From the sequence record MN101221.1: a stretch of 64,000 bases of DNA, one strand, 5' to 3'. The translations under genes and the position numbers were made by a program. Below, piece after piece: positions 1 through 62,836 of this stretch. The stretch is from Klebsiella phage KMI7. The notes under the pieces were generated by a model. It had not been told where the DNA came from and made no database searches. It saw only the letters and a list, made by a program, of their open reading frames with translations. The stretch's first letter is position 1. Each line of letters opens with the position of its first letter.

Positions 1-1
1 T

Positions 2-130
2 GGGAACCACGATCCGGAAAAAATGAGCGTCACGCGCCGTACATGCGGTTATTTGGGTGCTCCTGCTGTCCGTGGGTTCAACGAAGGTAAGAACAAAGAA
101 ATGATGCATCGCATTAAGCATCAAAATTAA
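2..130 (+). CDS. nrdD: Anaerobic ribonucleoside-triphosphate reductase NrdD, C-terminal fragment (5' end outside window)
   Basis: Frame-2 translation ...TRRTCGYLGAPAVRGFNEGKNKEMMHRIKHQN* carries the glycyl-radical RxCGYxG motif of NrdD C-termini; TAA stop at 128-130. Confidence 0.75.
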   Translation, partial: GNHDPEKMSVTRRTCGYLGAPAVRGFNEGKNKEMMHRIKHQN

Positions 131-140
131 TCAAAAAGCC

Positions 141-190
141 CTTGACTTCGGTTGAGGGCTTTTGTTATATTGGGCCTATCGAAAAAGGAG
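141..190 (+). promoter_or_regulatory. Hairpin/early-promoter cassette copy 1: UUCG-loop stem 145-170 with TTGACT -35 in the stem, spacer 17, TATATT -10, leader ATCGAAAAAGGAG
   Basis: aaagcccTTGACTtcggttgagggcttttgtTATATT seen directly; six further copies elsewhere in window. Confidence 0.7.
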
Positions 191-197
191 ACATATT

Positions 198-440
198 ATG
201 AAACTGACTAAGAAAATGACCGATGTAGTGGCATGTGCGTTTGCATTAGGCTACAAAGTTGAAAATCATCCAACTCGCGTTGAAGTCATCAACCCTATCA
301 AGGGCCGTCCTGGTTTGGTTCTGTGTGAAGACGGTACAGCATATCGTAATGATGTCTCTTTAGAACTGGCAACTACTATCCGCACCGCAAAACAAATGAA
401 AGATGTTCTCATTAGCGGCGCAAAATTGAGGGCTTTATGA
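198..440 (+). CDS. hypothetical protein (80 aa)
   Basis: ATG at 198 preceded by AAAAAGGAGA RBS; track ORF 162..440 extended by upstream alternative start. Confidence 0.6.
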   Translation: MKLTKKMTDVVACAFALGYKVENHPTRVEVINPIKGRPGLVLCEDGTAYRNDVSLELATTIRTAKQMKDVLISGAKLRAL

Positions 441-3246: not shown

Positions 3247-4206
3247 ATGATCCTGAATTTCAAAACCCGTAAAGAAGCGCGTAACTACTGCTGGAAGTGG
3301 AACATTCCCCTGAAAACTATCCGTAATACAGGGCGCGGTTCTTGCCCGTGGACAGTTCAAGCAAATGAACTGAAAACGTTCGTGGTTGGTAAAACTTACA
3401 AACTGGTTGACCGTGAAGGGTTTACTACCAATTCACACGGCGGATCTAACACCGCAAACACTATCCAAGCGAGACAGATCGAAAAATTCCTGAATAACGA
3501 GGTAAAAATTATCTCGAAAACCAATTCAGATACTTTCAAAATTGAGCATACTCCGGAAATGACTTTTAGCTCTCTGCGTTCGTGGGAAGCTCGTTATTTC
3601 GTTGAAGTTGGCGCGGCTCCGGTTAAGAAAACGAAAGCTAAACCGAAAAAAACCAACGTTACGGCTCCGGTTGCGCCTGTTGCACCAGTAACCGCAGATC
3701 TTGATCAAATGCTTGATGGTGGTTCGGCAATGTCGGTTGAATTAAATCCGACTGAATTTGTTGAAGGCCGTTCGTATGTTCTGGTTAAACCGCAGCAATT
3801 TAAAAATCGTTGTGGTGCTAACCACGGGATCAAATCATATACCGATGAACACAGTAATGGTGTATACACCGTTTACCATACGAATAATCTCAATCAACAT
3901 CAATTGAGCAAAACGGTAGAAACCATTGATTCCCAGACAGGGAAAGTTGGTTACTATCTGGTTGATTCTGAACGTTCGTTCTTCCGTGAACTGGCGACCG
4001 GAACTGCTGATGAACCTGTTAGCGTTTCCGGTAATAGCGCTATCGCTATCAACGTAGACGAAGCGGCTAAGAAAGAAGAAATCGCAAAAGCAATGGCACA
4101 GCTTGAAGAAGCGGTTAAAGCCCATGATGACGCGCTTCAAAATCTGCGTACTGCTTCCGACCTGGTTCGCAAAGCTGCTCGTAAAGTAGCAGAAGTAAGC
4201 AAGTAA
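3247..4206 (+). CDS. hypothetical protein with two repeated N-terminal modules, APVAPVAPV linker and C-terminal coiled coil
   Basis: ORF; ATG 3247 after GAGAG; internal repeat FVVGKTYKLV / FVEGRSYVLV. Confidence 0.55.
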   Translation: MILNFKTRKEARNYCWKWNIPLKTIRNTGRGSCPWTVQANELKTFVVGKTYKLVDREGFTTNSHGGSNTANTIQARQIEKFLNNEVKIISKTNSDTFKIEHTPEMTFSSLRSWEARYFVEVGAAPVKKTKAKPKKTNVTAPVAPVAPVTADLDQMLDGGSAMSVELNPTEFVEGRSYVLVKPQQFKNRCGANHGIKSYTDEHSNGVYTVYHTNNLNQHQLSKTVETIDSQTGKVGYYLVDSERSFFRELATGTADEPVSVSGNSAIAINVDEAAKKEEIAKAMAQLEEAVKAHDDALQNLRTASDLVRKAARKVAEVSK

Positions 4207-5532: not shown

Positions 5533-8500
5533 ATGGTAGCTAAATCATTCCGCGCACGAAGTGGCCTTGATGCCGCTGGTGAAAAAGTTATCAACGTTGG
5601 GAAGGCTGATCGTAATACGCTGAGTGACGGCGTTAACGTTGACTTTTTCAATGAATTTAACGGAATCCAGCAGTATGACCCGACCCGTGGTTATTCTCAA
5701 GACATGGCGATCATTTATGCGCGTCGTATCTGGTACGCAAAACAGAATATTGCTTCCCCTGCTGGGGCTTTCGACGAATCCAAATGGATCGCAACTCGTA
5801 ATGACCCGAAATGGGTTTATAGTAACGTAACCACTCCAGACGGTAGCATTATTGAATCTGGTAGTTACATTATGGCTGATGGGCGCTTTACTGAACTTCT
5901 GTACCTGCTGCCGGACAACCCGACAGAGGGCGACGTAATCACGTTTAAAGATTGCGGTGGTTTAGTAGGTGTGAACAGTATCCTTGTTAAGTCTAACACC
6001 CGTCAAATCCGTTTACGTGCGGTACAATCGGCACAGTATAGACTGACCCACCCGTACATGATCGCAACGTTTATCTATAACGGTAACGTATGGCGTGTTG
6101 CTGAAACTCTGGACAACCGTGATTCTGAGATCGTGAACGCAACCGGAACAGGTTCATTCCAGTTACAATCTGGTATGACAGTTTTCCGTAACAGTGCTAC
6201 AGGTAAAATCACTCTCCAGTTGCCGAAATATGCAAATGATGGTGATGTGATCACAACCTATGACGCTGATAAAATGAACTCTATCAACGTAGCCGTGTTG
6301 CAGATTTATCCAGGTAGTGGACACACTATTTCTGATGGTGCAAGTACTGGTGTTACTTCGGTAACTAGCCAGAAATCCGGCTTTGGTATGTTCATTTTTG
6401 ATGCACAGAATAGCCAATGGAAAGTATATGATGCTGATAACCGTGTTCGTCTGCGTCGTATCTATAGTGATTTAAACGCAGTTCCTAACGATTACGTTTT
6501 TGTTACTGCAAACCCTTCTGGGACTATACCAAACGTTACAGTTACCCTTCCAACTGATGTTGCTGATGGTGATCGCGTTTACGTATCCCTTTACATGATG
6601 GGTAAAAACCAGAACTGTACAATCAAAGTTAAAGATGGTACAACGGACAAGATCCGCACCAACAAAAATATGATGAAGTTCCCGCAGCGCAAAGATTATC
6701 CGCCTGATGATTGGTTTAGTGTAACTTCATTAGCCTTTAATGCTGGTAGTGATTACCTCCCGTATATCGAGTTTTCTTATCTGAAAGCTACGAAAGAATG
6801 GGTTGTTGCTAATTATCGTCCAATCGTTGAACGTGTTGATGCAACGAACAGATCGCGTACTGGTGTTATTGCTCTTGCTGCACAGGCAGAAGTAAACAAA
6901 AACTTGGAAGATAACCCGAACGACGAAACCGCTATTACTCCGATGACGTTAGCAAATAAAACTGCTACTGAAACCCGTCGTGGTATTGCGCGTTTAGCAA
7001 CAACTGCCGAGGTTAACAAACTTTCAACCGATACCTATCTGGATGATGTGATTGTTACCCCTAAGAAGCTGAACGAAAGAACAGCAACTGAAACCCGTCG
7101 TGGGCTGGCAGAAATCGCAACTCAGGCAGAAACCAACGGAAGCACCGATGATATTACTATTGTAACCCCTAAAAAGTTGCATAACCGTATTGCATCGCCG
7201 ACCTTGACTGGTATCCTTGCCCTTGTTGCTACTGGTGGTGCTCCTAACACCAACACGGATCGTGCTCAGGCTGGTACTGGGGTTTATGATCATTCAGATT
7301 ATCAGAAAGCGGTAACGCCTAAAACTCTTCGTGAGTATAAAGCGACTCAGTTACAATCCGGTGCTGTATGGCTGGCTTCTGAAACCGAAGTTATTAACGG
7401 TACTGTTGCAAGTTCAAACATTCCGACCGTTGTTACTCCGGAAATGCTGCACAAGAAAACCTCTACTGATGGTCGTATTGGTTTGATCGAGATTGCTACC
7501 CAGGCAGAAACAAACGCAGGGACTGATTACACGCGAGCGGTAACGCCTAAAACGCTTAACGATCGTGCTGCAACGGAAACGCTGACAGGTATCATTGCAA
7601 TTGCAACCACTGCCGAAGTATCAGCAGGTACTGTAACGAATAAAGCGATCGTACCGTCTAAACTGAAAGGTTATCTGGACGATACAAGTCATATTACTGT
7701 TGCTACTGCTGACGGGTTAACTCAATCTGGTACTATCTGGACTACGGTTAACATCGGTATTCAATCAGCAACCGAAACTCAACGTGGTACTTTACGCGTT
7801 GCTACGCAGTCTGAGACGAACGCAGGGACATTAGATACAGTATTTGTCACCCCTAAGAAGTTACACGCTAAGAAAGCGACTGAGAGCGCAGAAGGTATCA
7901 TTCAGGTGGCTACGGCTGCTGAAACTACTGCTGGCACCGTTGCAAACAAGGCTGTTTCTCCTAAGAACTTGAAAAATACAATTCAGGTTGATACTTCATG
8001 GCAAGCTACCGATCTGGTACGTGGTACTGTGAAGCTGTCTAAGGGGCTTGGTACTTGGTCTGGTAATGATGTGGCTGGTTCTACTCTTCCGGATGATGGT
8101 TACGCCGCTGTAGGTGTTGCTGTTTCTCCGTATGAACTGAACTTAACACTGAAACACTATCTGCCGATCGGGGCTAAAGCGGTTGATGCTGACAAGCTGG
8201 ATAACCTGGATTCTTCCCAGTTCATTCGTCGTGATGTTGATCAGACGGTTAACGGGGCATTGACTCTAACGAAAGCAACCACTGTACAGGCTGACATTAA
8301 CTCAACCGCTGACGCAAGTTTCCGGGTAATGAATGTTAGTGGAGATCTGAACGTTGGTAACGGCTCTACGATGGGTAAACTTCGTTTGAATGGTGGATCA
8401 TCTAACGACTGGTCAATTCAAGCAAGTTCAGCCTCTGGGCGTATTGCAATGATCTCAACGGGTAACACTGGCACAGTTCATCTTTCTGTGTATAATGATA

Positions 8501-14100: not shown

Positions 14101-15341
14101 TTTCTGCTAAAGCAGGACAAGCAATTTATCTGCGACCGCAAGGTGATACATCCAGCACAAACGAAACCCGTATTGATTCAAACGGTAGTATCACGATTAA
14201 CGGCAATATTAACGCTAACGGTACACTAACTTGTACTGGTGGTGCTGTTAACGGCGAACTTACTGTTAATAACGTTGGCCCGCTCCTGAAAAAAGGTATC
14301 CGAACTTACGCTGATGGTTCAGTTACAGTTAACGAAACTGACGGCATTAAGATGTTTGGCAACGGTACTATATCTGGTACTATGAGATTAGTTGAACGTG
14401 TTAACGATACTACGTTTATTGGTCTTCAAACATCGCTTAATGCAGATACCAACGGTTGGTTTGAGTTTCACCATAATGGGATGCTTCGAGCAAACCATGC
14501 GGAACTGACAACAGGTCTTCGTGTTAAAGGTTCTCCGATTGTTCAGCCAACAAGTGACAACAACGCCTGGGCGTCTATTAACTTTAGGCATACGGACGGT
14601 ACTACAAATCGTGGTATTTTGTTTGCTGATGCTGCTGGTAATATCGGGTTTAGTAATATAAACGGTAAAAACGTTATATGGAACACTGGTAACTACTTTA
14701 TCATTCAGCAAGGCGAACTGAACGTTGGTGTTAACAACGGTGGTACTGGAGAAAACAACGAAGACAGGAACAAAGCTAACTTCTACAACAAAGGTTCTAT
14801 TGATTGCGCAGGTACACGCGCGTATCAGGATGCCAACGCAGGAAACCGCTGGGTTCGTGAAGTTCGTGGCGTAAGACATCTTATGCAAGGAACCGACCTC
14901 GGTTCTGAGAATATATTTGTTGAACGTGTAGGCGAACGTCATTTCCATATGCTTCATGTGTTTGGGGCTAACAGTAACGGTTGGTTTGAATTCCGTAATA
15001 ATGGTGATATGTCGTGTAACGGTACGTTGTATGCGCAGGATGTCTATATAACTTCCGATAAACGACACAAACGTAATATCACTAAAGTTGAAAGCTCCGA
15101 AGAAATTTTGAGCAAAATGTCAGCTTATAATTACGAAGTTCGAGATCCTACAGCAGATGATGCATGGACGAAAGCAACGGGGCTTATTGCTCAGGAAGTT
15201 CAGGAAGTTCTTCCTACTGCTGTTGATGATTCAGATCCTGAACATATTCGCTTGAACTATAACGCGATTGTTGCGGTTCTGGTAGAACAGGTCAACAAGT
15301 TAACTGCTAAAGTTAATGAACTTGAAAGAAAACTTAATTAA
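11157..15341 (+). CDS. 37: Long tail fiber distal subunit gp37 with C-terminal S74-type intramolecular chaperone domain (about 15054-15338)
   Basis: N-terminus MADLAKIQFLRST.. like T4 gp37; C-terminus SDKRHK...GLIAQEVQEVLPTAV...LNYNAIVAVL...coiled coil matches the Ser-Lys dyad autoproteolytic chaperone domain of endosialidases/T5 pb1. Confidence 0.9.
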   Translation: MADLAKIQFLRSTVAGKTPTTSQLADGELAINMADYAIYTKNGSSIVQLAGKGIPETNTKKLTVDGPSALNDTVTVAEGKTITFTNADLSGGMVRHITGKNALNDGWYIGSGGESNKGFLEIGTIDDGDEEIRFVSRGSGDTVRRTLKLIDSGGNTRVPGNIYIDKAMGGGGSAFISKNKAYFGAGGADIYMRNTAGGATNQLTITDGGELLFQAKPVYWDGRKPTLTELGIGRVENARQLEQDNFPVTTGNETRWIKVALLKDPASGQSRLQLMVTNGGNYGSTRSSIDFIDCTARSIPATLTSANIRSYLQIRRIGDPAIDNTNQMRYSLVRTSEGLELWFTQRAFIGGVKVALLSIAGGAATEYYLPTGYTTSATAPEGLVESVAIRIYDEMNKPNLDDGTDGILSVAKGGTGASTAAAARTNLGLGTAATRDVGTGSGQVMLVGAYGLGGKGTSYSIANARDFLKQLRTDGSQFMRNTLGTDVNYGMGASFYSSVSDVHAVISVDWNTGRVKVGATNDTNLNSDTGRINFQELYGTAFKPTPDDVGAVARTGDTMSGDLTISKTSPGFHLNAVSGNAVIWFKNNGVESGAVWALPNTSSSGEVRIRAKTTGGTTGGEFSFKSDGTFTSPGNINITYGAFNGRTVNTSYANFNNASSTTTENTVTISGSQHTPLLLNRPTNSNLSIGFKLSGMNMKRLGIDLNGDIRYGEAENQTQNSWLLTSDTINRWIVNFGRDINVAGVVNSTGGFTGPVTAYDLTGVTQDLNNLTLNYTEPGHIKVYSCRSMGGGDNITNKPSGVGGNFIVIVECLRKVNDTDYTNRQVLRASDNKRSWERWLTVSGTAKTWTPWRMNVVSGNDDDVSFKSVTTTTGNLNSGNDLIVANNARVGGNLGLGGASSTTYTDKGVVIGNGSALLESTDGRVIIGSSGAGRAVEFRPGGPTQTNNGIKVTATSGSGGDTAIEYAQGVKIRSNAAGALIVSAKAGQAIYLRPQGDTSSTNETRIDSNGSITINGNINANGTLTCTGGAVNGELTVNNVGPLLKKGIRTYADGSVTVNETDGIKMFGNGTISGTMRLVERVNDTTFIGLQTSLNADTNGWFEFHHNGMLRANHAELTTGLRVKGSPIVQPTSDNNAWASINFRHTDGTTNRGILFADAAGNIGFSNINGKNVIWNTGNYFIIQQGELNVGVNNGGTGENNEDRNKANFYNKGSIDCAGTRAYQDANAGNRWVREVRGVRHLMQGTDLGSENIFVERVGERHFHMLHVFGANSNGWFEFRNNGDMSCNGTLYAQDVYITSDKRHKRNITKVESSEEILSKMSAYNYEVRDPTADDAWTKATGLIAQEVQEVLPTAVDDSDPEHIRLNYNAIVAVLVEQVNKLTAKVNELERKLN

Positions 15342-15361
15342 GGGGCTTCGGCCCCTTTTCG
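15342..15361 (+). terminator. rho-independent terminator (GGGGC-UUCG-GCCCC + U4)
   Basis: Hairpin + T-run after gene 37 stop. Confidence 0.65.
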
Positions 15362-15372
15362 GAGGTTAACTA

Positions 15373-15900
15373 ATGGCTATTTCCGGCCCACTAGTTGGAA
15401 GTTCGGCGGTTAATGAAACTGGACAACGATCCATGATTCAAGCTGCTGCCGTCGTTCGACTTGGAACCCCATTTTATATGTCTCAATTAATTGGGCGTAG
15501 CAAATGGCATTTTACTTTTGTTCCCCAGGAACGTTGGTATAACAACACTCGTTGGCGTGGTGTTTGGCGTAAGGGTGCTGATACTGGCGTATGGTATAAT
15601 ATTTCTGACTCTGATTATACTATCGTTGGTGATTATAATGGTAAGCAAATAGGTACTATTGGCGCTATCGGTGATTCAGCAGAAAACGTGTCTAACTTAA
15701 CAATCTATGACGGGCCAAATCGAAATGTACGCATTTTGTTTACCCGTGTAGATAACAATCAACAATGGACGTTTGATTTCAGGATATCAAGTTATATGCG
15801 TGATGGATTCAGAAACTATGACGCGATGAGTAAAGATTGGTATGGTTTCCTTAATGGTAACGTAGGTGTGACCATTTCTGGGATCATTACTGAGATTTAA
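15373..15900 (+). CDS. hypothetical protein in the gene-38 position (175 aa, beta-rich, no recognisable gp38 chaperone or Gly-rich adhesin motifs)
   Basis: ORF with GGAGG RBS between 37 and t; no similarity recognised. Confidence 0.6.
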   Translation: MAISGPLVGSSAVNETGQRSMIQAAAVVRLGTPFYMSQLIGRSKWHFTFVPQERWYNNTRWRGVWRKGADTGVWYNISDSDYTIVGDYNGKQIGTIGAIGDSAENVSNLTIYDGPNRNVRILFTRVDNNQQWTFDFRISSYMRDGFRNYDAMSKDWYGFLNGNVGVTISGIITEI

Positions 15901-15906
15901 TTTTTA

Positions 15907-15933
15907 AGGCTACCATACAGGTAGCCTTTTTTG
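15907..15933 (+). terminator. rho-independent terminator (AGGCTACC..GGTAGCCT + U6)
   Basis: Hairpin + TTTTTT seen. Confidence 0.7.
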
Positions 15934-15979: not shown

Positions 15980-16627
15980 ATGGCTGAGAGAAATCCCGTA
16001 GATAAACTAGCCTTATTTGATCGGGTAATCTCGTTTGTGATGGGTGTGAAAACATGGAAACAATTGCTGATAAAAATAATTCTAATAATGGTTATGTTTC
16101 TTATGGTAGTAACTTGGTACAAATGGACTGATATATTCCCGATGATAAAAGGTGCCCTTGTAGTCGATACAAGGGCTATCGAAATGGAAAGAACAGAAAA
16201 GTTTAATCAATCCGCGTTGGAACAGTTGAGCATAGTTCATCTTACTTCCAACGCGGATTTTTCGGCGGTACTGGCATTCAGACCAAAGAACATAAACTAT
16301 TTTGTTGACATTGTAGAATATCAGGGAAAATTACCATCCCAGATCGATCCTAAAAACCTCGGCGGTTATCCGATCGATAAAACATCCGAAGAATACACGA
16401 ATCATATAAATGGCTTGTATTATTCATCCACTAAAGCAAGTTCCTACCTACCGACACGTGATTTTGTGCCAGTAGCTTATACTTTTAGTTGCCCTTATTT
16501 TAATCTTGATAACTACTATTCTGGATCGGTTTTGATGGAATGGTACGCAAAGCGGCCTGATATACCAGATATGAAGCTAAACATCATATGTGGACAGGCC
16601 GCGCGTATTTTAGGTCGAGCGAGGTGA
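15980..16627 (+). CDS. t: Holin t (T4-type class III holin)
   Basis: Single N-terminal TMD; ...FNLDNYYSGSVLMEWY...ICGQAARILGRAR aligns with T4 gpt (CPYFNLDNIYAGTITMYWY..ICAQAARILGRAK). Confidence 0.9.
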   Translation: MAERNPVDKLALFDRVISFVMGVKTWKQLLIKIILIMVMFLMVVTWYKWTDIFPMIKGALVVDTRAIEMERTEKFNQSALEQLSIVHLTSNADFSAVLAFRPKNINYFVDIVEYQGKLPSQIDPKNLGGYPIDKTSEEYTNHINGLYYSSTKASSYLPTRDFVPVAYTFSCPYFNLDNYYSGSVLMEWYAKRPDIPDMKLNIICGQAARILGRAR

Positions 16628-16909: not shown

Positions 16910-17184
16910 AAATTTCTATGCATGAATGGTCGAATTCCGATAGTTTCACTCAAAATGAATATCGGATGATCTAGCTCATCGTGGTTTTCTTCGTCAATGA
17001 CGATATCCCAATCAGTAGCCTTTTGTTCTTCTACCGTGGCAATGAATACCTGGTTTACTTCACACTTGCGGTGTGTACGTCTGATGATTGTATCCCCTTC
17101 ACGAAACACAATCATATCAGGGTTGGTAGTGCGGTACGCGGTTTTACCCGCGCACACTTCATTAAGCATATCTTCGTATGTCAT
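16894..17184 (-). CDS. hypothetical protein (96 aa)
   Basis: ORF. Confidence 0.5.
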   Translation of the reverse strand: MTYEDMLNEVCAGKTAYRTTNPDMIVFREGDTIIRRTHRKCEVNQVFIATVEEQKATDWDIVIDEENHDELDHPIFILSETIGIRPFMHRNFWGYQ

Positions 17185-17981
17185 TATAAAACCTTTACAC
17201 GTTGAACGATGGTTTGTTTAACGTCTTTGTATTCTCCGTGCTCTTTAACGGTTGCTTTGAAAGTGATTTCATCACCTTCGTTTGCAATGTTATTACCGAA
17301 GTAAACAACAACATTACCATCAACATTAATTTTGGTCATGAATCTTTCCACAGAAGTGTAGTAAGAAACTTGAGTATATCCCAGTGAAATCACTTTCTCA
17401 ACGGTTCCGGTCATTTCCAGACGTTGTTTGATTTCACCGATGTGGTTAGCTTTAGAAATGCGTTCCTGGCGCTCTTGTTCCCACTGTTCGCGGATTTCTT
17501 CGCGTTTGGCGATATAATCCTTCTCCAGTGCAACACCCATGCAGTAAGCGCACACGGCGTCAAATACAGGGCTGTTTTTGTTGTCTTCTTTAGACTGGTC
17601 AGCCCACCAAAGAACAGTAAACATTGGCATTTCTGCAATTACTTCGCCTTTACGCTTGCCAATCGGCATGATCCCTTTTTCCAGCAGTTCCAGTTTTTCA
17701 GTATCGAACACTGACAGTTTACCGCGACGTTCGAACAGATCGAAATCTGCAAAGCCCTGGAATACCATTTTGAAAGTATCAGTTTCAGTTAAACGGGCTG
17801 AAACACGGTCGAAATACTCACGCGCTTTCGCTTCCGCTTTCTCCGGATCGGTAGATAAGTTGCAGATATAGTTATCAGAAGTATAACCGCCACCTCTACG
17901 CTCAACACGCAAGGTATACATTGCATTTTTACGACCAGAAGAAATGAAGTAAGTGGTAGTAACTACGGTTGCGTTAGTCAT
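17184..17981 (-). CDS. hypothetical protein (265 aa)
   Basis: ATG at 17981 with AAGGAGA RBS and the cassette promoter/leader upstream; track ORF extended to 18050. Confidence 0.6.
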   Translation of the reverse strand: MTNATVVTTTYFISSGRKNAMYTLRVERRGGGYTSDNYICNLSTDPEKAEAKAREYFDRVSARLTETDTFKMVFQGFADFDLFERRGKLSVFDTEKLELLEKGIMPIGKRKGEVIAEMPMFTVLWWADQSKEDNKNSPVFDAVCAYCMGVALEKDYIAKREEIREQWEQERQERISKANHIGEIKQRLEMTGTVEKVISLGYTQVSYYTSVERFMTKINVDGNVVVYFGNNIANEGDEITFKATVKEHGEYKDVKQTIVQRVKVL

Positions 17982-18060
17982 GGTATTTCTCCTTAAAGGG
18001 TATCTCGTTTCGATATGGCTAATATAGCAAAAGCCCTTGACTTCGGTCAAGGGCTTTTTT
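17982..18060 (-). promoter_or_regulatory. Hairpin/early-promoter cassette copy 2 (terminator stem 18031-18056; -35 CTTGAC, -10 CTATAT, leader ATCGAAACGAG)
   Basis: aaagcccTTGACttcggtcaagggcttttgCTATATtagccatATCGAAACGAGatacccTTTAAGGAGaaatacc ATG on minus strand. Confidence 0.7.
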
Positions 18061-23643: not shown

Positions 23644-23712
23644 TTTAGAATCTCCTTTGCTTGGTACAAAACCAATATAGCAAAAAGCCCCCTGCATTGC
23701 AAGAGGCTTTGT
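23644..23712 (-). promoter_or_regulatory. Hairpin/early-promoter cassette copy 6 (-35 TTGCAA in stem, -10 CTATAT)
   Basis: aaagcctcTTGCAAtgcagggggctttttgCTATAT...AAAGGAG on minus strand. Confidence 0.6.
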
Positions 23713-26942: not shown

Positions 26943-26968
26943 GAAAAAGAAAACCCCTTTCGGGGTTT
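26943..26968 (-). terminator. rho-independent terminator (AAACCCC-GAAA-GGGGTTT + U-run)
   Basis: Hairpin and T-run on minus strand overlapping stop of 26967..27173. Confidence 0.6.
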
Positions 26969-27173
26969 ATGCTCGTTTTATCTTTTCCAGAATGGAAATA
27001 AGTTCATCAACCTGCATTCTGGTCAGTGTTATTGTTTTTCCGTCCTGGATAATTTCTGTCATTTCTGATACGGATTCCGTATTAAATTTGACATCCAGTA
27101 AATCAGAATACGGTTCTGGTTGAAATCCTTCTGCAAAACCGTAATCATCGGGGATCCATTCATTAATTTTCAT
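26967..27173 (-). CDS. hypothetical protein (68 aa)
   Basis: ORF; ATG 27173 preferred over track GTG 27182. Confidence 0.45.
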   Translation of the reverse strand: MKINEWIPDDYGFAEGFQPEPYSDLLDVKFNTESVSEMTEIIQDGKTITLTRMQVDELISILEKIKRA

Positions 27174-27178
27174 GATAA

Positions 27179-27343
27179 TCACTTGTTATAAGGGAAACCA
27201 TCACGAACCATTTGCGGTTTGTCCACCGTTCGTTTTGCTTTGCCCCCGCAATAACACTCTTTCGGTTCGTCGCGGCTTGCGATGCTTGACATCTTCGGGA
27301 ATTCTTTTTCGCACTTGGTGCATTTATAGGTATAGGTAGGCAT
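27179..27343 (-). CDS. small zinc-ribbon protein (54 aa; CxxC...CxC, FmdB-like) not in ORF track
   Basis: MPTYTYKCTKCEKEFPKMSSIASRDEPKECYCGG...; TAATG coupling with upstream gene stop at 27343. Confidence 0.55.
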   Translation of the reverse strand: MPTYTYKCTKCEKEFPKMSSIASRDEPKECYCGGKAKRTVDKPQMVRDGFPYNK

Positions 27344-30247: not shown

Positions 30248-30322
30248 TTTCGTATTCCTTTCTCTGTTTCGTTTCGATGAATACAAGATACCAAAAAGCC
30301 TCCCGCAATGCAAGAGGCTTCT
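30248..30322 (-). promoter_or_regulatory. Hairpin/early-promoter cassette copy 7 with leader (stem 30296-30320 containing TTGCAT; -10 TATCTT; ATCGAAACGAAAC)
   Basis: aagcctcTTGCATtgcgggaggctttttggTATCTTgtattcATCGAAACGAAACagagaaaggaa on minus strand. Confidence 0.65.
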
Positions 30323-30336
30323 TTAACAAAAAAATG

Positions 30337-30863: not shown

Positions 30864-31046
30864 TCACCCCTTAATTGTGTCAAGTACAGTAAACCAGTCA
30901 TGAAGCCATATCGTTGTTCTTACAGCGATATACGTTAACAAACTAATCAATGATACCGCTCCGCAAATAGCCAGCGTAATCAACAGCCGGATTTCAAATT
31001 TAGTAAAATTCATATCAATCTCCTTTCTGAGAACCCAATATAACAA
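30864..31046 (-). CDS. hypothetical small membrane protein (60 aa)
   Basis: ORF downstream of cassette copy 3 with AAAGGAGA RBS. Confidence 0.45.
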   Translation of the reverse strand: MLYWVLRKEIDMNFTKFEIRLLITLAICGAVSLISLLTYIAVRTTIWLHDWFTVLDTIKG

Positions 31047-31090
31047 AAGCCCTCAACCGAAGTCAAGGGCTTTGTTTTAAATTTTTACTA
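31034..31090 (-). promoter_or_regulatory. Hairpin/early-promoter cassette copy 3 (40-nt identical to copy 1 in reverse orientation)
   Basis: revcomp of 31034-31073 = aaagcccttgacttcggttgagggcttttgttatattggg, identical to 145-184. Confidence 0.7.
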
Positions 31091-31358
31091 GTTTTGGCAA
31101 TCGAATAACTATACCAGGATGGATCAGACGTGCATCCGGAATAGAATCACGGTTGATTTTAGCGATATCAGGCCAAAGTTCACCAACACCATACAGTTTC
31201 TTTGCTATAGAATATAGGCTATCGCCTGGTTGCACGACATAGCGATCAGATTCAATCTTAACCAGATCCTGGTTAATGATATCATCAAAGGCTTTTGCTT
31301 TCGCTTCGTTAATCGTGTTCCCGTAGTAATGGCGATCCATAATAGTTAATGTGATCAT
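31077..31358 (-). CDS. LysM domain protein (93 aa)
   Basis: QPGDSLYSIAKKLYGVGELWPDIAKINRDSIPDARLIHPGIVIRLP = LysM consensus. Confidence 0.7.
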   Translation of the reverse strand: MITLTIMDRHYYGNTINEAKAKAFDDIINQDLVKIESDRYVVQPGDSLYSIAKKLYGVGELWPDIAKINRDSIPDARLIHPGIVIRLPKLVKI

Positions 31359-40898: not shown

Positions 40899-42056
40899 TT
40901 ATAAAATTTCGTCGTTTTCTTCGATATCATCAAATGATTCTGGGATATCGTCATCATCCAGATCAGGATCTGGGATGCTATCAGTGCTGTATAAATCTTC
41001 CAGCGCGGAACCATCGCTGATTTCACGATCTGGGATCTTATACTTTTCTTCGATAGCTTTCAAGAATGGTTGATGAGTAAACAGAGGACGCCAGAATTCA
41101 ACGCTATTTGTTTCTGACTCACGCCATTTCTTTTCTTCAACTTCGAGTTCGCCAGTCTCAGTATTCAGGAAAGCGCGGTTGCGCCATCCTTTGGTTACGG
41201 TCTGTACAAAGTTCATTTCCATTGCCAGATCCAAAAGGCCAGAATACATACTAATACCGCCTTCATAGGTAACATGCAGCGGGAATTTTGATTTCTCTTT
41301 CACGAATCGAGATTTTTCGATGTTCATGATGAAATCATAACCCACTACCTCAGTACCTTCTTTCACCTGTTGTTTACCCAGGATGATCGCAGTATCAGCG
41401 GAATACATTAAACCAGTACCACCGGAAATAACTTTCTTGCTGTACATTTCTTGTGTGTCATAGGTATGACAGATACAAACCATCGGGATATCCAGGTCAG
41501 CCAGATAAGGCGTAACCATACGGAACATACCTTTTAATGCTTTTGCTCGCGTCATATCCTGTTTATCGTTATCAGACAGCGCGTCAGCAAGTTCTTTTTT
41601 ACTTGCCGTGTTGCCTACTGAGTCAACGAATACAATCACCTTATCACCGCGTTCAAGCGCGTTAAGCTGGCTTACAACGTCATTACGCAACTGCTCGACC
41701 GTCGTGATACGAGTATACACAACACGATCCGGATCAACACCCATTGATTTCAGATAGGATTTAGTAACACCTTTTTCTGAATCGTAGAACAGGCACACAG
41801 CATCTTCATACGTTTTGAGATAAGCCGCTACAGTCAGCAAACCTAAGTTGGATTTGAAGTGTTTGGACGGGCCAGCGAAAAGGGTAAGACCAGAAGTTAG
41901 GCCACCGTTAAACGCACCGGACAACGCCAGATTCAGAATCGGCACACGGGTTCGCGTGATGGTAATATTGTTGAATACGTCGCTTTCAGAAAGTACAGAT
42001 GCAGTTTGGCTATTCGAGTTTTTGATCAGTTTTTTTAGTAGTGCTTTGTTTGACAT
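40899..42056 (-). CDS. uvsX: Recombinase UvsX (RecA/Rad51 family)
   Basis: Aligns with T4 UvsX (GPSKHFKSNLGL.., VIVFVDSVGNTASKKE, MVCICHTYDTQEMYSKKVISGGTG, KSRFVKEKSKF). Confidence 0.95.
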   Translation of the reverse strand: MSNKALLKKLIKNSNSQTASVLSESDVFNNITITRTRVPILNLALSGAFNGGLTSGLTLFAGPSKHFKSNLGLLTVAAYLKTYEDAVCLFYDSEKGVTKSYLKSMGVDPDRVVYTRITTVEQLRNDVVSQLNALERGDKVIVFVDSVGNTASKKELADALSDNDKQDMTRAKALKGMFRMVTPYLADLDIPMVCICHTYDTQEMYSKKVISGGTGLMYSADTAIILGKQQVKEGTEVVGYDFIMNIEKSRFVKEKSKFPLHVTYEGGISMYSGLLDLAMEMNFVQTVTKGWRNRAFLNTETGELEVEEKKWRESETNSVEFWRPLFTHQPFLKAIEEKYKIPDREISDGSALEDLYSTDSIPDPDLDDDDIPESFDDIEENDEIL

Positions 42057-45206: not shown

Positions 45207-45490
45207 TGCGCGTCCTCCATTCTTTTCATAAAGACTTCTTTTGCTTGTTGGATCAAGTCCAGAGATTTTTTAATACGCTCATAGAAATGAGTGGTTTCAA
45301 CTTGATTGCATAACAACGTGTACTCTGAAATGTTACGATCGTAAAATCCAGGAAAGTAATGTTGTGCATAGCTGTAAGTGCGGGTATCTGACAGATTGCA
45401 AGTTAACGATAACAAGATGTCATCTTTTACAATCGGGATGATCAAAGTTTCGTTGGATTTGATTGAATCCATGATTTCGTTAATAGTCAT
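45203..45490 (-). CDS. hypothetical protein (95 aa)
   Basis: ORF, ATGA coupling; preceded by cassette copy 5. Confidence 0.5.
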   Translation of the reverse strand: MTINEIMDSIKSNETLIIPIVKDDILLSLTCNLSDTRTYSYAQHYFPGFYDRNISEYTLLCNQVETTHFYERIKKSLDLIQQAKEVFMKRMEDAQ

Positions 45491-45558
45491 AATATATCCC
45501 TCTCAATGGTGTACACCCAATATAACAAAGCCCCTGCACGAATGCAAGGGCTTTTTGA
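45491..45558 (-). promoter_or_regulatory. Hairpin/early-promoter cassette copy 5 (UUCG-loop stem with TTGCAT -35, TATATT -10)
   Basis: aaagcccTTGCATtcgtgcaggggctttgtTATATTgggtgtacaccattGAGAGGgatatatt ATG on minus strand. Confidence 0.65.
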
Positions 45559-54385: not shown

Positions 54386-56060
54386 AACATTGACTTATCA
54401 AAATATCTTGTCGGTTGGTAACGTACCGATCGTCATTGATTTTGATTCAGCAAAGAAAACCCTCATTACGGGTAAAAACGGCGGTGGTAAATCCACCATG
54501 ATCGAAGCGCTTACATATGCTCTCTTTGGTAAGTCATTTCGCGATCTGAAAGTCGGACAACTGGTGAACAGTATCAACAAGAAAAAATGTCTGGTTGAAC
54601 TGTTGATCGAATACGGTAATGATGAATATAAAATCATCCGTGGACAAAAGCCGAAAGTATTTGAGATCTGGAAGAATGGCGAAAAACTGCCGGAAGATTC
54701 AGCCGCTGGTGATTATCAGTCACAGCTTGAATCAATGTTGAATATTAATCTGGTGGGCTTTAAACAGGTTATCGTTCTGGGTACTGCTGGTTATGTACCT
54801 TTCATGGAACTGAAAACACCAGATCGCCGTAAACTGGTTGAAGATTTGTTGTCTTTGTCTATCATCAGTGAAATGGACAAACTGAACAAATCATACATCC
54901 GTGGTGTTAACCGCGAACTGGATACGCTTTCAATGCAGATTGGACACGTACAACAGCAGATCGCAACACATCAAAAGTTCATTGACGAACAACGGGCAAA
55001 AGCAAATCAGAATACGGCGCGTTACCAGGATATCTACGATTCCCACGTAGAAACAGCAAAACAGATTAAAGCGCAATTAGTTGAACTTCAAACCCAGATC
55101 GCAGAATGTGTGATCAATGGTGAAGACCAAACAGCAAATATTCAAAAACTGCGTGATGGCTATACACGCCTCTCAATGAACGTAGAACAGTTGCAGCGTC
55201 TTGAGGTGATGTATCGCAAGGGTGGTGAATGTCCGGCCTGTAAACAGCCAATTAGCCCCACTCCTGAACGCATGGAAGAGATTGCCGAGAATATTAAAAA
55301 CGGTACTCAGAAACTTACGCTGATTAAGAACAAGCAAGATCAGCTACAGAAAATCATGGATGATTTACTAACACAACAACGTACACTAAATGGGCTGAAA
55401 TCCAAATACGAATCACTACGCGGTACACTTCAAAACGAAGTTGCAGCGGCTAAACGTGTTCGGGCTGTCATGGATAAAGCACAGGAAGACGTGGTGATCG
55501 ACGAATCCCCAGTTGAAAAACTCCGTGAAGATGAAAAGGAACTTGATTCTAAACGTTCTGGATTTGTCAAGGAAAAATATTTCAGAGGTATTGTTACGGA
55601 TCTGCTGAAAGATTCCGGCGTTAAAGCGAGCATCGTTAAACGTTATATTCCTTACTTCAATAAACAGATTGCGTACTATCTGGATCTGTTGGGTGCTGAT
55701 TATCAGTTCACTCTGGATGATGAATTTAACGAATCGATTAAATCGCTGGGTCGTAATGATTTTAGTTACGCATCGTTCAGTCAAGGAGAAAGAGCACGTA
55801 TCAACCTTGCTTTACTTTTCACCTGGCGCGATGTAACCAGTAAAATTTCTGGTGTTGATTTATCCCTTCTGATCCTGGATGAAGTGTACGATGGTGCAAT
55901 TGATCGTGATGGTAGTTTTGCTGTAAAAGCACTATTGGATGGGATAAATGGTAACGTAATTGTTATCAGTCATCAGGATTTGGATCCGGAAGATTTCGAC
56001 CGACATATTGTTATGTCAAAAGTCGGTCGATTCTCTAAAATGGAAGTTAAGAAGTCTTAA
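54369..56060 (+). CDS. 46: Recombination endonuclease subunit gp46 (Rad50/SbcC-like ATPase)
   Basis: GKNGGGKSTMIEA Walker A, coiled-coil middle with CPxC zinc hook, C-terminal signature and D-loop; colinear with T4 gp46. Confidence 0.92.
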   Translation: MKLKFKTLTYQNILSVGNVPIVIDFDSAKKTLITGKNGGGKSTMIEALTYALFGKSFRDLKVGQLVNSINKKKCLVELLIEYGNDEYKIIRGQKPKVFEIWKNGEKLPEDSAAGDYQSQLESMLNINLVGFKQVIVLGTAGYVPFMELKTPDRRKLVEDLLSLSIISEMDKLNKSYIRGVNRELDTLSMQIGHVQQQIATHQKFIDEQRAKANQNTARYQDIYDSHVETAKQIKAQLVELQTQIAECVINGEDQTANIQKLRDGYTRLSMNVEQLQRLEVMYRKGGECPACKQPISPTPERMEEIAENIKNGTQKLTLIKNKQDQLQKIMDDLLTQQRTLNGLKSKYESLRGTLQNEVAAAKRVRAVMDKAQEDVVIDESPVEKLREDEKELDSKRSGFVKEKYFRGIVTDLLKDSGVKASIVKRYIPYFNKQIAYYLDLLGADYQFTLDDEFNESIKSLGRNDFSYASFSQGERARINLALLFTWRDVTSKISGVDLSLLILDEVYDGAIDRDGSFAVKALLDGINGNVIVISHQDLDPEDFDRHIVMSKVGRFSKMEVKKS

Positions 56061-56772
56061 ACTTGCAGTTATCAAAATGCCAGCGATTCATATTGCTGGC
56101 ATCACCAGATTTATTGCAATATGGACAAATCAACTGCTTCCTTTTTGCTGGCGTCTTTCTATTTGGGTTATTTCTGCAATACGGTATATGTGAACGCAGA
56201 TAATGTAATGACGATTCTGTTCCGCAATATGGACAATTGCCCCGTTCTTTAGGTACGTTTCCGTTCTTATGGGAACACGGGATACCCTCGAACTTATGTT
56301 TCAACCCTTCATTACCTGGTTTCAGTTTGCAGTTGTCGAAGTGCCAACGAGTCATATTTCCAATTATACCTGATTTTCCGCAATGAGGACACACAACCCT
56401 TTCTTGTTGCTTTTTGGCTTTACTCATTCGCTGTCTGGTTTCTTCGGTGAACTCTCTATTCCTATGTGCTTCTGACGCTTTTTTCTTTAACCATTCATAG
56501 CGGCGGTTAGCTGTTCTTTCCTTTGATCTATTGGAACCAACTGTTAACATATGCGCTGCAAAAACAAGTTTGTTATTTCCTGGGTACATCTTGACTAATA
56601 ACAGATGCGCAATATAATGTTGACGCGCTGTAAGATTAACCAAATTATCATCAGAATCTGTTCCACCTATGCACTTAGGTATGATATGGTGTGATTCTGT
56701 ATATCCATCATACTGCGTTTGTTTAGCATGTTCTATGATAGAGTTATAAATTTTGTTATAGTTCATAAACAT
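56047..56772 (-). mobile_element. Free-standing HNH homing endonuclease (Mob-like) with three C-terminal CPxCG...RWHFDNCK zinc-finger repeats
   Basis: HHIIPKCIGGTDSDDNLVNLTARQHYIAH HNH motif; 3' end overlaps gene 46 stop convergently by 14 nt. Confidence 0.8.
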
Positions 56773-56822
56773 ATCTCTTGTTTGATGGGCCGTTAGATAC
56801 CCCTATTTAAGAGGATGAAATT

Positions 56823-57017
56823 ATGTTATTAGAAAAATCTTTTGAATTAGAAACCGCTCTGGAAATAGAGCGGTTTTATCTCCACAACAATTTTCTTGAA
56901 GAAAAACATATAGTTACTATGAAAGATGTTGAGGAAGCATTCAAAAATAATCCTATAGAGTTGACGCGAATCAAGAACAACAAAAGTTCTGTTTGGTTCC
57001 TCGAAAAAATCTATTGA
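56823..57017 (+). CDS. hypothetical protein (64 aa)
   Basis: ORF with AAGAGGA RBS; terminator hairpin follows. Confidence 0.5.
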   Translation: MLLEKSFELETALEIERFYLHNNFLEEKHIVTMKDVEEAFKNNPIELTRIKNNKSSVWFLEKIY

Positions 57018-57327: not shown

Positions 57328-57775
57328 CGGAAACGATATCTTTGTTGAAGTTGGTACACTGAAAGTTCGTTTCTATCGTCACGTGTTCATGCGCAAAGGT
57401 GCTTATGTGTTTAGCGCGGTGTATGATCCTGCTGTATCTAAGTATCGTCCGGCTGCACAACTTCGCGGAACCATGTTCGAAGACGAAGACGGCGCTTGCC
57501 TGGATATGATCGTTGATACGTTCAAAGAGTTGCAGAAACTGAAACCGAGTGTTCAAGGCGTTGTGAACGCGATCGATAAGATGAACGCAGAGTTTGCAGC
57601 GGGACATCGTTCAGCATCTTTTGTTAAACGTGTAGCTGCTCAGGAAGCCGCGCCGAAGCCAGAAGAGAAGCCAAAACGCACTGTTAATCGTATCGGTAAA
57701 GAGGCACTGGAAGAACGATATTCCAACATCACGGGGATCTTTTCCCCGTCCTTGACGTTGTTAATGATATCCTGA
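57284..57775 (+). CDS. hypothetical protein in +1 frame overlapping J-domain gene (start uncertain; possibly expressed by frameshift or from internal ATG 57389)
   Basis: Protein-like ORF (…FEDEDGACLDMIVDTFKELQKLKPSVQGVVNAIDKMNAEF…) with no RBS at its GTG/ATG candidates. Confidence 0.45.
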   Translation: MAHVLRLLVTFAHVSGNDIFVEVGTLKVRFYRHVFMRKGAYVFSAVYDPAVSKYRPAAQLRGTMFEDEDGACLDMIVDTFKELQKLKPSVQGVVNAIDKMNAEFAAGHRSASFVKRVAAQEAAPKPEEKPKRTVNRIGKEALEERYSNITGIFSPSLTLLMIS

Positions 57776-58109: not shown

Positions 58110-58455
58110 ACACGGTATCCGAACTTGTAATGACAGTGTACACGGTTTCTTTCACAAGATCCATGATTTTCTGTGATTCTCCCCAGACATTGATACTAAA
58201 ATAAATCCCATTTTTAGGAATAGGATTGTATTCCATATCATAATACATATCCATGAGTTCACAAATGAACAGGCGGCGCTGTTCGTTATCATATGTGAAA
58301 TAAATGTTAAAACAATCGAGAGATTTACTCAAAGTAATCTCTTTGATAACGATGTTGTCTTGTTTGCTAAAATGATCGCGGATTGCTTGCACACAACGCA
58401 ACAGGTTAGGGTAATCATATTTTTGTGAAACAATGACTTGATGTGAAACGCTCAT
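58060..58455 (-). CDS. hypothetical protein (131 aa)
   Basis: ORF downstream of cassette copy 4 with GAGAGGA RBS. Confidence 0.5.
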   Translation of the reverse strand: MSVSHQVIVSQKYDYPNLLRCVQAIRDHFSKQDNIVIKEITLSKSLDCFNIYFTYDNEQRRLFICELMDMYYDMEYNPIPKNGIYFSINVWGESQKIMDLVKETVYTVITSSDTVYERPNDAYESRFTLVK

Positions 58456-58522
58456 AATGTATTCCTCTCAATTAGATACACTCATAATAAAAAAGCCCCC
58501 GACCGAAGTCAAGGGCTTTTTG
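58456..58522 (-). promoter_or_regulatory. Hairpin/early-promoter cassette copy 4 (-35 TTGACT in stem, -10 TATTAT)
   Basis: aaagcccTTGACTtcggtcgggggcttttttTATTATgagtgtatctaattGAGAGGAatacatt ATG on minus strand. Confidence 0.7.
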
Positions 58523-62380: not shown

Positions 62381-62782
62381 TTAATAATCGTAAAGATCAC
62401 CGAAGCATAATTCAAATTCACGTTTACGTTTCATCTGTTCTTCTTTTCTCTCTTTCATATCAGAAGGGAGACGATCTTCATTGACTTCATCAATGTACGC
62501 TTGTGCATCCTCTTTTGTTAGAAAGAATGCATGGAAGTTATATCTGTTACGCCCATTCATACTACGGTCGTCAAGAGAGAATTGAGTGTGACAGTCCCAG
62601 TCATCAAACAGGGTGATGCATTTTGCAAACAGCCCTATACCGCGATTCATATAAGGGAAGCCAGTAACAATCATCTTGTTACCCATTTCCGCTTTTTCAC
62701 CGTCCACGCAGAATACTTCATACATGATCGCACCTGGTTTAACATCTTTCTTAACAGCACGTTTTTCAAAAGCACTTTTCAT
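62381..62782 (-). CDS. hypothetical protein (133 aa)
   Basis: ORF. Confidence 0.5.
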   Translation of the reverse strand: MKSAFEKRAVKKDVKPGAIMYEVFCVDGEKAEMGNKMIVTGFPYMNRGIGLFAKCITLFDDWDCHTQFSLDDRSMNGRNRYNFHAFFLTKEDAQAYIDEVNEDRLPSDMKERKEEQMKRKREFELCFGDLYDY

Positions 62783-62836
62783 AATATATTCCTCTCAATT
62801 GGTGTAACTACAGGTTACTTGTTTATTTTCTGGATG

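Follow-up and report, generated by a model that had tools for sequence, protein, structure and literature searches.

The 64,000-nucleotide (nt) stretch of Klebsiella phage KMI7 that we analysed (sequence record MN101221.1; referred to below as the window) carries the 40-mer AAAGCCCTTGACTTCGGTTGAGGGCTTTTGTTATATTGGG in two exact, inverted copies. The body of evidence is best explained, we consider with good confidence, if this 40-mer forms the central part of a composite regulatory cassette of the PeSL (promoter-early stem-loop) type and if the pair is identical through gene conversion and purifying selection. PeSLs, as described in coliphages RB49 and phi1, combine a sigma70-like promoter with a stem-loop and lie between a stop codon and a Shine-Dalgarno sequence with its ATG (Arbiol et al. 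2010, PMC2839356). Both the promoter and the terminator of the present cassette would be active, judging from consensus matches and by analogy with RB49 and phi1.

Exact matching places the 40-mer at 135-174 on the plus strand and at 31034-31073 on the minus strand, and no third match is present in the window even when up to three mismatches are allowed; the number of 40-mer matches expected from 100 dinucleotide-preserving shuffles is 0. An earlier interpretation made from the letters alone (the sequence-only reading) had reported 40/40 identical inverted copies about 31 kb apart, and both statements are confirmed by the exact match at these two sites and by the 30,859 nt that separate the repeat arms. 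Of its coordinates, 31034-31073 is right, but the partner lies at 135-174 rather than at 145-184, a slip of 10 nt. At lower identity (92%) the repeat extends to 52 nt (123-174 and 31034-31085), and this pair is the longest inverted repeat of the window.

The window shares 99.3% identity over 3 kb with Klebsiella phages VAC13 and phT4A and with other members of Slopekvirus (KP15-like, Straboviridae), compared with 60-80% identity to Pseudotevenvirus (the RB16/RB43 group). Across phage records the exact 40-mer occurs at 210 places in 111 entries, and for this reason an assembly quirk can be dismissed. The same figures mean that 99 of the 111 records hold two exact copies, which corresponds to about 90% of the Slopekvirus genomes sequenced; among these same genomes, the sequence within 25 nt to each side of the 40-mer varies by substitutions and by indels of 1-3 nt. 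We conclude that the pair was fixed before the sequenced isolates diverged, and the data lend no support to the proposal that the duplication is recent. Twelve records have a single copy, and all three of those examined, KLB3 among them, have kept the one at position 3. The 40-mer pair thus appears to be under purifying selection or continued homogenisation.

Cassette anatomy and predicted function

The two copies, which we term the position 1 and position 3 cassettes, are laid out as follows.

135-174, plus strand: position 1 cassette, between nrdD and a small open reading frame (ORF); hairpin 134-163 with a UUCG loop; -35 hexamer TTGACT at 142-147; TGT followed by the -10 hexamer TATATT at 166-171
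31034-31073, minus strand: position 3 cassette, between the LysM gene and a 49-amino-acid (aa) membrane ORF; hairpin 31073-31046; -35 hexamer 31066-31061; -10 hexamer 31042-31037

In sense order, both copies present an upstream stop codon in A/T-rich sequence, the hairpin, a T-run, the -10 hexamer, AAGGAG and an ATG. Both placements are intergenic, with TAA at 128-130, AT-rich sequence at 123-134, AAGGAG at 185-190 and ATG at 198 for position 1, and the stop of the LysM gene at 31077, AAGGAG at 31025-31020 and ATG at 31013 for position 3. A terminator scan returned for both copies a stem of 12-13 bp, AAAGCCCTTGAC-UUCG-GUUGAGGGCUUU, followed by the T-run (13 bp being scored at position 1). The -35 hexamer TTGACT lies inside the 5' arm of this stem and is separated by an 18-nt spacer from TGT-TATATT, giving 10 of 12 consensus bases plus a TG extension in both copies; the distance from the -10 hexamer to AAGGAG is about 14-20 nt, and the ATG of the small ORF follows. 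Folding of the sense RNA yields -18.4 and -19.4 kcal/mol for copies 1 and 3, respectively, versus -12.7 and -13.2 kcal/mol for the antisense RNA, because two of the pairs are G-U and turn into C-A on the other strand. The 33-nt hairpin core folds with -18.3 kcal/mol. A G+C-rich hairpin followed by a U-run is a predicted intrinsic terminator, and a terminator is annotated at the same site in KP15 (by ARNold), KLB25 and KLB27. The KP15 and KP27 records annotate the site as both promoter and terminator, with a MEME-derived 'putative middle promoter' lying over the ARNold terminator.

We propose that the sense transcript folds into a 12-13 bp hairpin with a UUCG tetraloop and a U-run, and that this hairpin would terminate or attenuate, and probably stabilise, the upstream message, which is nrdD at position 1 and dexA-LysM at position 3. 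At the DNA level, this hairpin's 5' arm would act as a near-consensus sigma70 -35 element (TTGACT) placed 18 nt before an extended -10, from which host RNA polymerase could re-initiate a few bases downstream to yield a short leader, a Shine-Dalgarno sequence and the small ORF.

Cassette family and the distribution of its alleles

A hairpin-plus-promoter scan combined with a pattern scan identified at least seven cassettes in the window, at 134 on the plus strand and at 18058, 23710, 30323, 31073, 45554 and 58521, all on the minus strand. All seven are intergenic, co-oriented with the genes and followed by a Shine-Dalgarno sequence and an ATG; the 5' arm of each contains TTGAC or TTGCA, and TAnnnT comes just past each T-run. 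The ORFs downstream of positions 1, 2 and 3 are small, have no Pfam match and belong to PHROGs of unknown function. The members other than positions 1 and 3 are these.

18021-18058, minus strand: position 2 member ('copy 2' of the sequence-only reading), AAAAGCCCTTGACCGAAGTCAAGGGCTTTTGCTATATT; a perfect palindrome whose loop is inverted relative to its relatives
23674-23710, minus strand: -35 hexamer TTGCAA inside the stem; TGC-TATATT as -10
30285-30323, minus strand: 750 nt downstream of position 3; -35 hexamer TTGCAT in the stem and -10 hexamer TATCTT; promoter and terminator annotation in KP15
45519-45554, minus strand: upstream of two small ORFs and gene 43; hairpin identical to the one in the cassette that Citrobacter phage IME-CF2 has at position 3
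58484-58521, minus strand: TTGACT, 17 nt, TATTAT

To compare folding across genera we collected 14 cassettes from the two genera, the seven from Pseudotevenvirus being located by position and not by structure. All 14 fold into hairpins of 12-14 bp with energies between -14.8 and -21.1 kcal/mol; the stem imperfections are sense-strand G-U pairs (C-A in antisense) in 11 of the 14, and the sense fold is more stable than the antisense fold in 13. A MAFFT alignment of 13 cassettes put stems of unequal length out of register, and folds of the two strands and pairwise comparison of orthologues were used instead. The latter reveals compensated changes, for example at position 1, where CCC-TTGAC/GTTGAGGG in Slopekvirus corresponds to CCCCTTG-C/GT-GAGGGG in RB16 and RB43. 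In addition, the three variable arm positions are all pairable in 46 of 51 metagenomic matches, compared with about 1 in 8 expected without constraint, a count that is supporting only since many matches are repeated samples or unrelated terminators. The pattern with which matches were initially collected forced Y/R at these three positions and was therefore circular, and the metagenome contigs were rescanned with N. Within the TTGAC sub-family the 5' arm that bears the -35 hexamer is invariant and the 3' arm varies by transitions, as would be predicted for an element that serves as a promoter in its DNA form and as a hairpin in its RNA form.

For the origin of the identical pair, the decisive point is how the alleles are distributed among genomes. 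In Pseudotevenvirus, position 1 (RB16, RB43) is occupied by AAAGCCCCTTGCGAAAGTGAGGGGCTTTTGTTATATT, which agrees with the Slopekvirus sequence at 31-32 of 42 positions, and position 3 (RB16, IME-CF2, leE) by AAAGCCCTTGCATTCGTGCA(A/G)GGGCTTTGTTAT, which agrees at 28-30 of 40. The Slopekvirus position 1/3 sequence is found in RB16 at position 2 (39/39; 39/40 against the 40-mer), upstream of the orthologue of the window ORF 17184-17981, and the RB16 cassette at 3998 is nearer to the window cassette at 30323 than to its own positional orthologue at 23710. Cassette alleles, it follows, do not track genomic position. The cassettes appear to have been overwritten in place with their flanking genes undisturbed, as non-reciprocal recombination between family members would give. 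One cassette allele would thus have replaced others by gene conversion within the family, at a time before the split of the sequenced Slopekvirus isolates, and its sequence would have been preserved by purifying selection ever since.

This explanation has to be weighed against one in which independent terminator-promoters reached or kept the same optimum with no copying between positions, given that most of the 40 nt are functionally loaded (-35, stem, UUCG loop, T-run, extended -10) and that the 40-mer is invariant across about 100 genomes while its flanks drift. Working members of the family, however, differ freely in the loop, the three 3'-arm positions, spacer length, TGn and the bases past the -10 hexamer, and therefore function does not force 40/40 identity. 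The GTTGA arm shared by the two copies, which other members do not have, contains two G-U pairs and gives a hairpin of -18.3 kcal/mol versus -20 to -21 kcal/mol for the alternatives, so the shared sequence is not the optimum. Moreover, the positional orthologues in the sister genus are other sub-types, the same allele stands elsewhere in RB16, and other copies likewise have the AT-rich sequence 'aatttaaaaca' in their upstream flank and 'gggcctatcgaaa' as their leader. Pure convergence or constraint is on this evidence unlikely, and the earlier claim that the cassettes were duplicated or mobile and not convergent is upheld as far as copying or gene conversion is concerned, given orthologues that agree at only 28-32 of 40-42 positions and the 39/39 match at RB16 position 2. 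A self-mobile miniature element of the REP or MITE kind that inserts at new sites would also produce a short palindromic repeat in several copies, with the same sequence at different positions in different genera. Every position examined is nevertheless occupied in the other genus by a cassette with the same architecture, a sign of replacement in place and not of insertion; target-site duplications were not found flanking either copy, all copies follow gene orientation, and no Rfam family matches anywhere in the window. We rejected such an element because target duplications are missing and cassettes are replaced in place, and we regard it as extremely improbable.

A further alternative concerns the promoter half, which could be a MotA-type middle promoter, making the cassette a 'PmSL'. 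In the KP15 record it bears the label 'putative middle promoter; discovered using MEME', KP27 is annotated likewise, and PmSL variants have been described in nt-1 (PMC4122927). Against this, a hexamer stands at -35 spacing (TTGACT, 18 nt) together with an extended -10, whereas a MotA-dependent middle promoter would have TGCTT centred near -30 in place of the -35, together with a -10, in a phage that encodes MotA and AsiA. A TGCTT Mot box at the needed spacing was not found, the sole GCTTT lying immediately before the -10 hexamer. The spacing between a Mot box and the -10 hexamer is 11-13 bp. The literature on PmSLs has the Mot box placed 'at the appropriate distance' (PMC4122927). ORFs at the location of asiA and motA in T4, and at that location only, were compared with Pfam and PHROG and gave no match. 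We rate a middle promoter as rather unlikely and read the promoter as a predicted, as yet unproven, sigma70 (early) type, given that a Mot box is missing at middle spacing and that the ORFs found where T4 has asiA and motA match neither gene.

Several points weigh against a PeSL-type cassette homogenised by conversion. No transcript mapping or reporter data for Slopekvirus were found in the literature searched, the spacer of 18 nt departs from the optimum of 17, and the label chosen by the KP15 authors leaves the temporal class of the promoter unsettled. As to the conversion, the lineage in which the replacement occurred is either Slopekvirus or Pseudotevenvirus, the comparison covering these two genera, and an ancestral triplet of identical cassettes, held by strong purifying selection, with the other genus then diverging rapidly through compensated changes, may be an alternative history.

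Three further sequence features accompany the family. The position 2 loop (18029-18058) reads CGAA in sense, where VAC13, KP15, RB16 and metagenomic orthologues have TTCG, and this looks like an inversion by hairpin template switching. The conserved motif ATCGAAAC(GAAAC), probably a transcription start or 5' leader, stands 6-7 nt past the -10 hexamer of many cassettes (window 178-185, 18008-18016, 30270-30283, about 29930 and about 63490; also RB16 and RB43), and copy 3 is without it. A second repeat family, consisting of a conserved leader and ribosome-binding site 'AATTGAGAGGAATAnATTATGA', is found at 45487-45508, 58452-58473 and 62779-62800 and is common to several small early genes.

Gene order, inversion and breakpoints

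The gene layout was assigned through collinearity with VAC13. The plus strand carries the 3' end of nrdD (1-130), seven small ORFs, nrdG and further ORFs that include a glutaredoxin gene, followed by tail-fibre genes 34-37, a small ORF (15373-15900) at the position of gp38 in RB16, and a holin gene ending at 16627. From 16628 to about 51.6 kb the genes are on the minus strand, in the order of transcription rnh ... gene 43, uvsX ... dda, dexA and the LysM gene, and after it small ORFs, topoisomerase genes, rIIA, rIIB and ndd. Copy 1 follows directly on nrdD and points rightward, and copy 3 follows directly on the LysM gene and points leftward; the copies are inverted because each points with its own transcription unit, the two arms converging at the holin gene. 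The genes that bear on the two cassettes are listed here.

1-130, plus strand: 3' end of nrdD (anaerobic ribonucleotide reductase), stop codon 128-130, after the VAC13 annotation; the position 1 hairpin would terminate its transcript
185-440, plus strand: Shine-Dalgarno sequence AAGGAG (185-190) and 80-aa ORF with ATG at 198, downstream of the position 1 promoter; the ORF (198-440) has no Pfam match, falls in a PHROG family of unknown function and is absent from RB16
31077-31358, minus strand: LysM-domain gene (Pfam LysM, E = 2.9e-8), overlapping the dexA stop codon; absent from RB16, present in IME-CF2 and leE
30864-31025, minus strand: Shine-Dalgarno sequence (31025-31020) and 49-aa ORF with ATG at 31013, downstream of the position 3 promoter; the ORF has a transmembrane annotation in KLB25
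40899-42056, minus strand: uvsX (RecA-like recombinase), collinear with VAC13 ORF152, 'UvsX RecA-like recombination protein'

The sequence-only reading had proposed that the identical inverted 40-mers are an active substrate for UvsX-dependent recombination, by which the 31 kb block of tail-fibre and early genes inverts or is swapped between phages. There is something to be said for this idea. The recombinase is encoded in the window itself, T4-type recombination is said to need homology patches of <50 bp (Singer 1982, as cited in PMC2839356), UvsX-dependent joining at minihomologies of 3-13 nt has been documented in T4 (PMC8262927), and direct-repeat PeSLs in RB49 and phi1 recombine into mini-circles (PMC2839356). 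An inverted genome would probably be viable, since both promoters point into the block and every gene would still stand behind an equivalent promoter. The genomes nevertheless speak against it. A query made of 600 nt of nrdD, the 40-mer and the 600 nt downstream of copy 3 is recovered in one piece in none of the 186 related records with a match, and all 23 exact 40-mer contexts (fetched loci and metagenome contigs) have parental flanks, with no recombinant pair among them, so that the two orientations expected of an invertible segment are not seen in either set. A BLAST match in some records that reached query position 674, and that was considered as a possible recombinant flank, was rejected because it aligned as the usual flank of position 1. 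As far as consensus genomes go, RB16 and RB43 have the same gene order and orientation (nrdD ... 34-38, t / ... ndd, rIIB, rIIA ... dexA) despite different cassettes there, and KLB3 keeps the order with no cassette at position 1, which is the outcome that the sequence-only reading itself had named as contrary to its proposal. Within the block, the window and VAC13 differ by replacement only at the fibre tip (14179-15895), whose borders are sequences other than the position 1 and position 3 cassettes.

Mechanistic considerations point in the same direction. The 40 nt of identity fall short of the approximately 50-150 nt quoted for classical homologous recombination (PMC8262927), kilobases of allelic homology compete in every infected cell, and a clean product would need an intramolecular reciprocal event, given that a single intermolecular exchange would lead to non-viable palindromic products. 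Inversion or exchange of the block through these repeats is for these reasons quite unlikely, although rare isomers may be hidden in consensus assemblies. Rather improbable, too, is an intermediate view in which the pair is kept identical by ongoing conversion across 31 kb, the 39-40 nt allele moving between positions and even between genera in co-infection, with a minority of viable inversion isomers hidden by consensus assemblies.

As to synteny breakpoints, the sequence-only reading had asked whether they coincide with the cassettes. Protein-seeded searches for the loci in IMG/VR gave only near-identical relatives, and annotated GenBank records were compared instead. Macro-synteny does not break at position 1 or at position 3. 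Both lie inside what we take to be neighbourhoods conserved in T4, namely nrdD-nrdG and gene 39 to dexA. Where single small genes are concerned, on the other hand, indels and breaks in homology often coincide with cassettes, as the PeSL model predicts. VAC13 has an extra ORF of 213 nt (ORF110) directly abutting the position 2 cassette on its 5' side, and the window has an extra 211 nt (26970-27180; small ORF 26967-27182, minus strand) beside a hairpin at 26944-26967, a segment that is absent from VAC13; at this place RB16 has an ORF of similar size (p007). RB16 is without the LysM gene just upstream of position 3 and without ORF 198-440 just downstream of position 1, and DNA similarity of the window to Pseudotevenvirus (IME-CF2, Nando, Citrof4 and leE) runs through dexA and the LysM gene and ends at the cassette (query position 503-508). 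The match between the metagenomic relative ERZ1026872.38 and KP15 ends about 35 nt beyond another cassette of the family, and different genes follow; the upstream gene is shared, the hairpins are one loop base apart, and in ERZ1026872.38 a position 2-type -10 with the leader tgcTATATTagccatatcgaaacga comes after the hairpin. This is a naturally occurring recombination joint, located at a member of the family that lies beyond the window. In KLB3 (locus PP444687.1, 17283-18188), another hairpin and a gene for a GIY-YIG homing endonuclease, the latter directly after a divergent nrdD 3' end, take the place of the position 1 cassette, the terminal part of nrdD and ORFs 198-1649. Not every indel falls at a cassette, the left breakpoint in KLB3 lying inside nrdD.

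Further features were noted elsewhere in the window. At 14179-15895, the distal fibre tip and the next small gene do not align with VAC13, which suggests a swap of an adhesin or host-range module; the right border is at a bidirectional hairpin (15906-15928). Within the proximal tail-fibre (gp34-like) gene, diverged direct repeats of 40-49 nt with spacings of 108-378 nt (6935-7883) probably correspond to structural modules that are repeated. At 56008-56829 the window has an insert of about 820 nt with a 241-aa ORF (56047-56772, minus strand) that is absent from VAC13. A joint at 57699-57704, where there is no cassette, is found in none of 178 related phage records and has no match in IMG/VR. 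Its left side ends inside the VAC13 'DnaJ-domain protein' gene, and its right side continues, with orientation unchanged, in the PhoH/endolysin region, which in PMBT1/KP15 lies about 45 kb farther along, so the window is without about 45 kb (frd, td, nrdA, nrdB, denA and more) relative to all relatives. The joint has patchy microhomology only, GGTAAAGAGG|CACTGGAAG, and is either a large deletion variant or a mis-join.

Relation to known elements and significance

The feature belongs to the PeSL type of cassette, which is known from T4-type phages and which in KP15 had been annotated piecemeal. Subsequent to RB49 and phi1, PeSLs were reported in T4/PST and in KVP40/nt-1 (PMC4122927). They are divided into five sub-classes by the place of the stem-loop, including 'between the -35 and -10' and 'overlapping the -35' (PMC2839356), and are concentrated upstream of ORFans, in hyperplastic regions and beside indels (PMC2839356; PMC4122927). 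Terminator and strong promoter activity in reporters, and recombination into mini-circles, have been demonstrated, nrdD and gene 43 are named as PeSL-associated genes, and PeSL-like sequences were noted in RB43 (PMC2839356; PMC4122927). The cassettes of the window share with PeSLs the intergenic placement, the sigma70-like hexamers (spaced by 18 instead of about 17 nt), the stem-loop, the membership of a repeated family and the association with indels.

As in RB49 and phi1, an intergenic promoter and a G/C-rich stem-loop are present in many copies, mostly upstream of ORFans and beside indels, and the stem-loop extends over the -35 and through the spacer, an arrangement that corresponds to one of the five sub-classes described. 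Unlike in those phages, the stem of the Slopekvirus cassette is AAAGCCC...GGGCTTT with a UUCG loop and not G(n)-loop-C(n), and its function is predicted. Moreover, where the RB49/phi1 study deals with nearby direct repeats and mini-circles, we find an exact inverted pair 31 kb apart and alleles shared across positions and genera. The stem is similar in style to the consensus A3-4G3-loop-C3T3-4 of the nt-1 PeSLs and PmSLs (Comeau et al. 2014, PMC4122927), and the cassettes lie beside insertions, deletions and replacements, as do the T4/PST and KVP40/nt-1 elements (PMC4122927). The PST stem-loops, in contrast, are just upstream of the promoter (PMC4122927), whereas here the -35 is inside the stem and the promoter consensus differs. 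For KP15 and KP27 (Maciejewska et al. 2016, PMC5219037; NC_014036, NC_020080), the very same site has been annotated; that study lists promoters, called 'middle', and terminators, without a composite or PeSL family, paralogue identity or an analysis of plasticity. Small genes with their own promoter and terminator also recall the lambdoid morons (Hendrix et al. 2000, as discussed in PMC2839356). According to that discussion, the moron flanks are neither conserved repeats nor thought to drive mobility, whereas here the regulatory element is itself the conserved repeat.

The analysis reveals no new mechanism and shows no inversion of the tail-fibre block. It provides, however, a clean example in which the paralogous cassettes of one genus are identical to each other and unlike their positional orthologues, which is evidence of concerted evolution. 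The cassettes mark where accessory genes come and go, and they are predicted to be strong, insulated early promoter/terminator units that could probably serve in phage engineering. The PeSL concept, in which regulatory cassettes act as linkers for modular shuffling, is thereby extended to the large, therapeutically used KP15-like Klebsiella phages.

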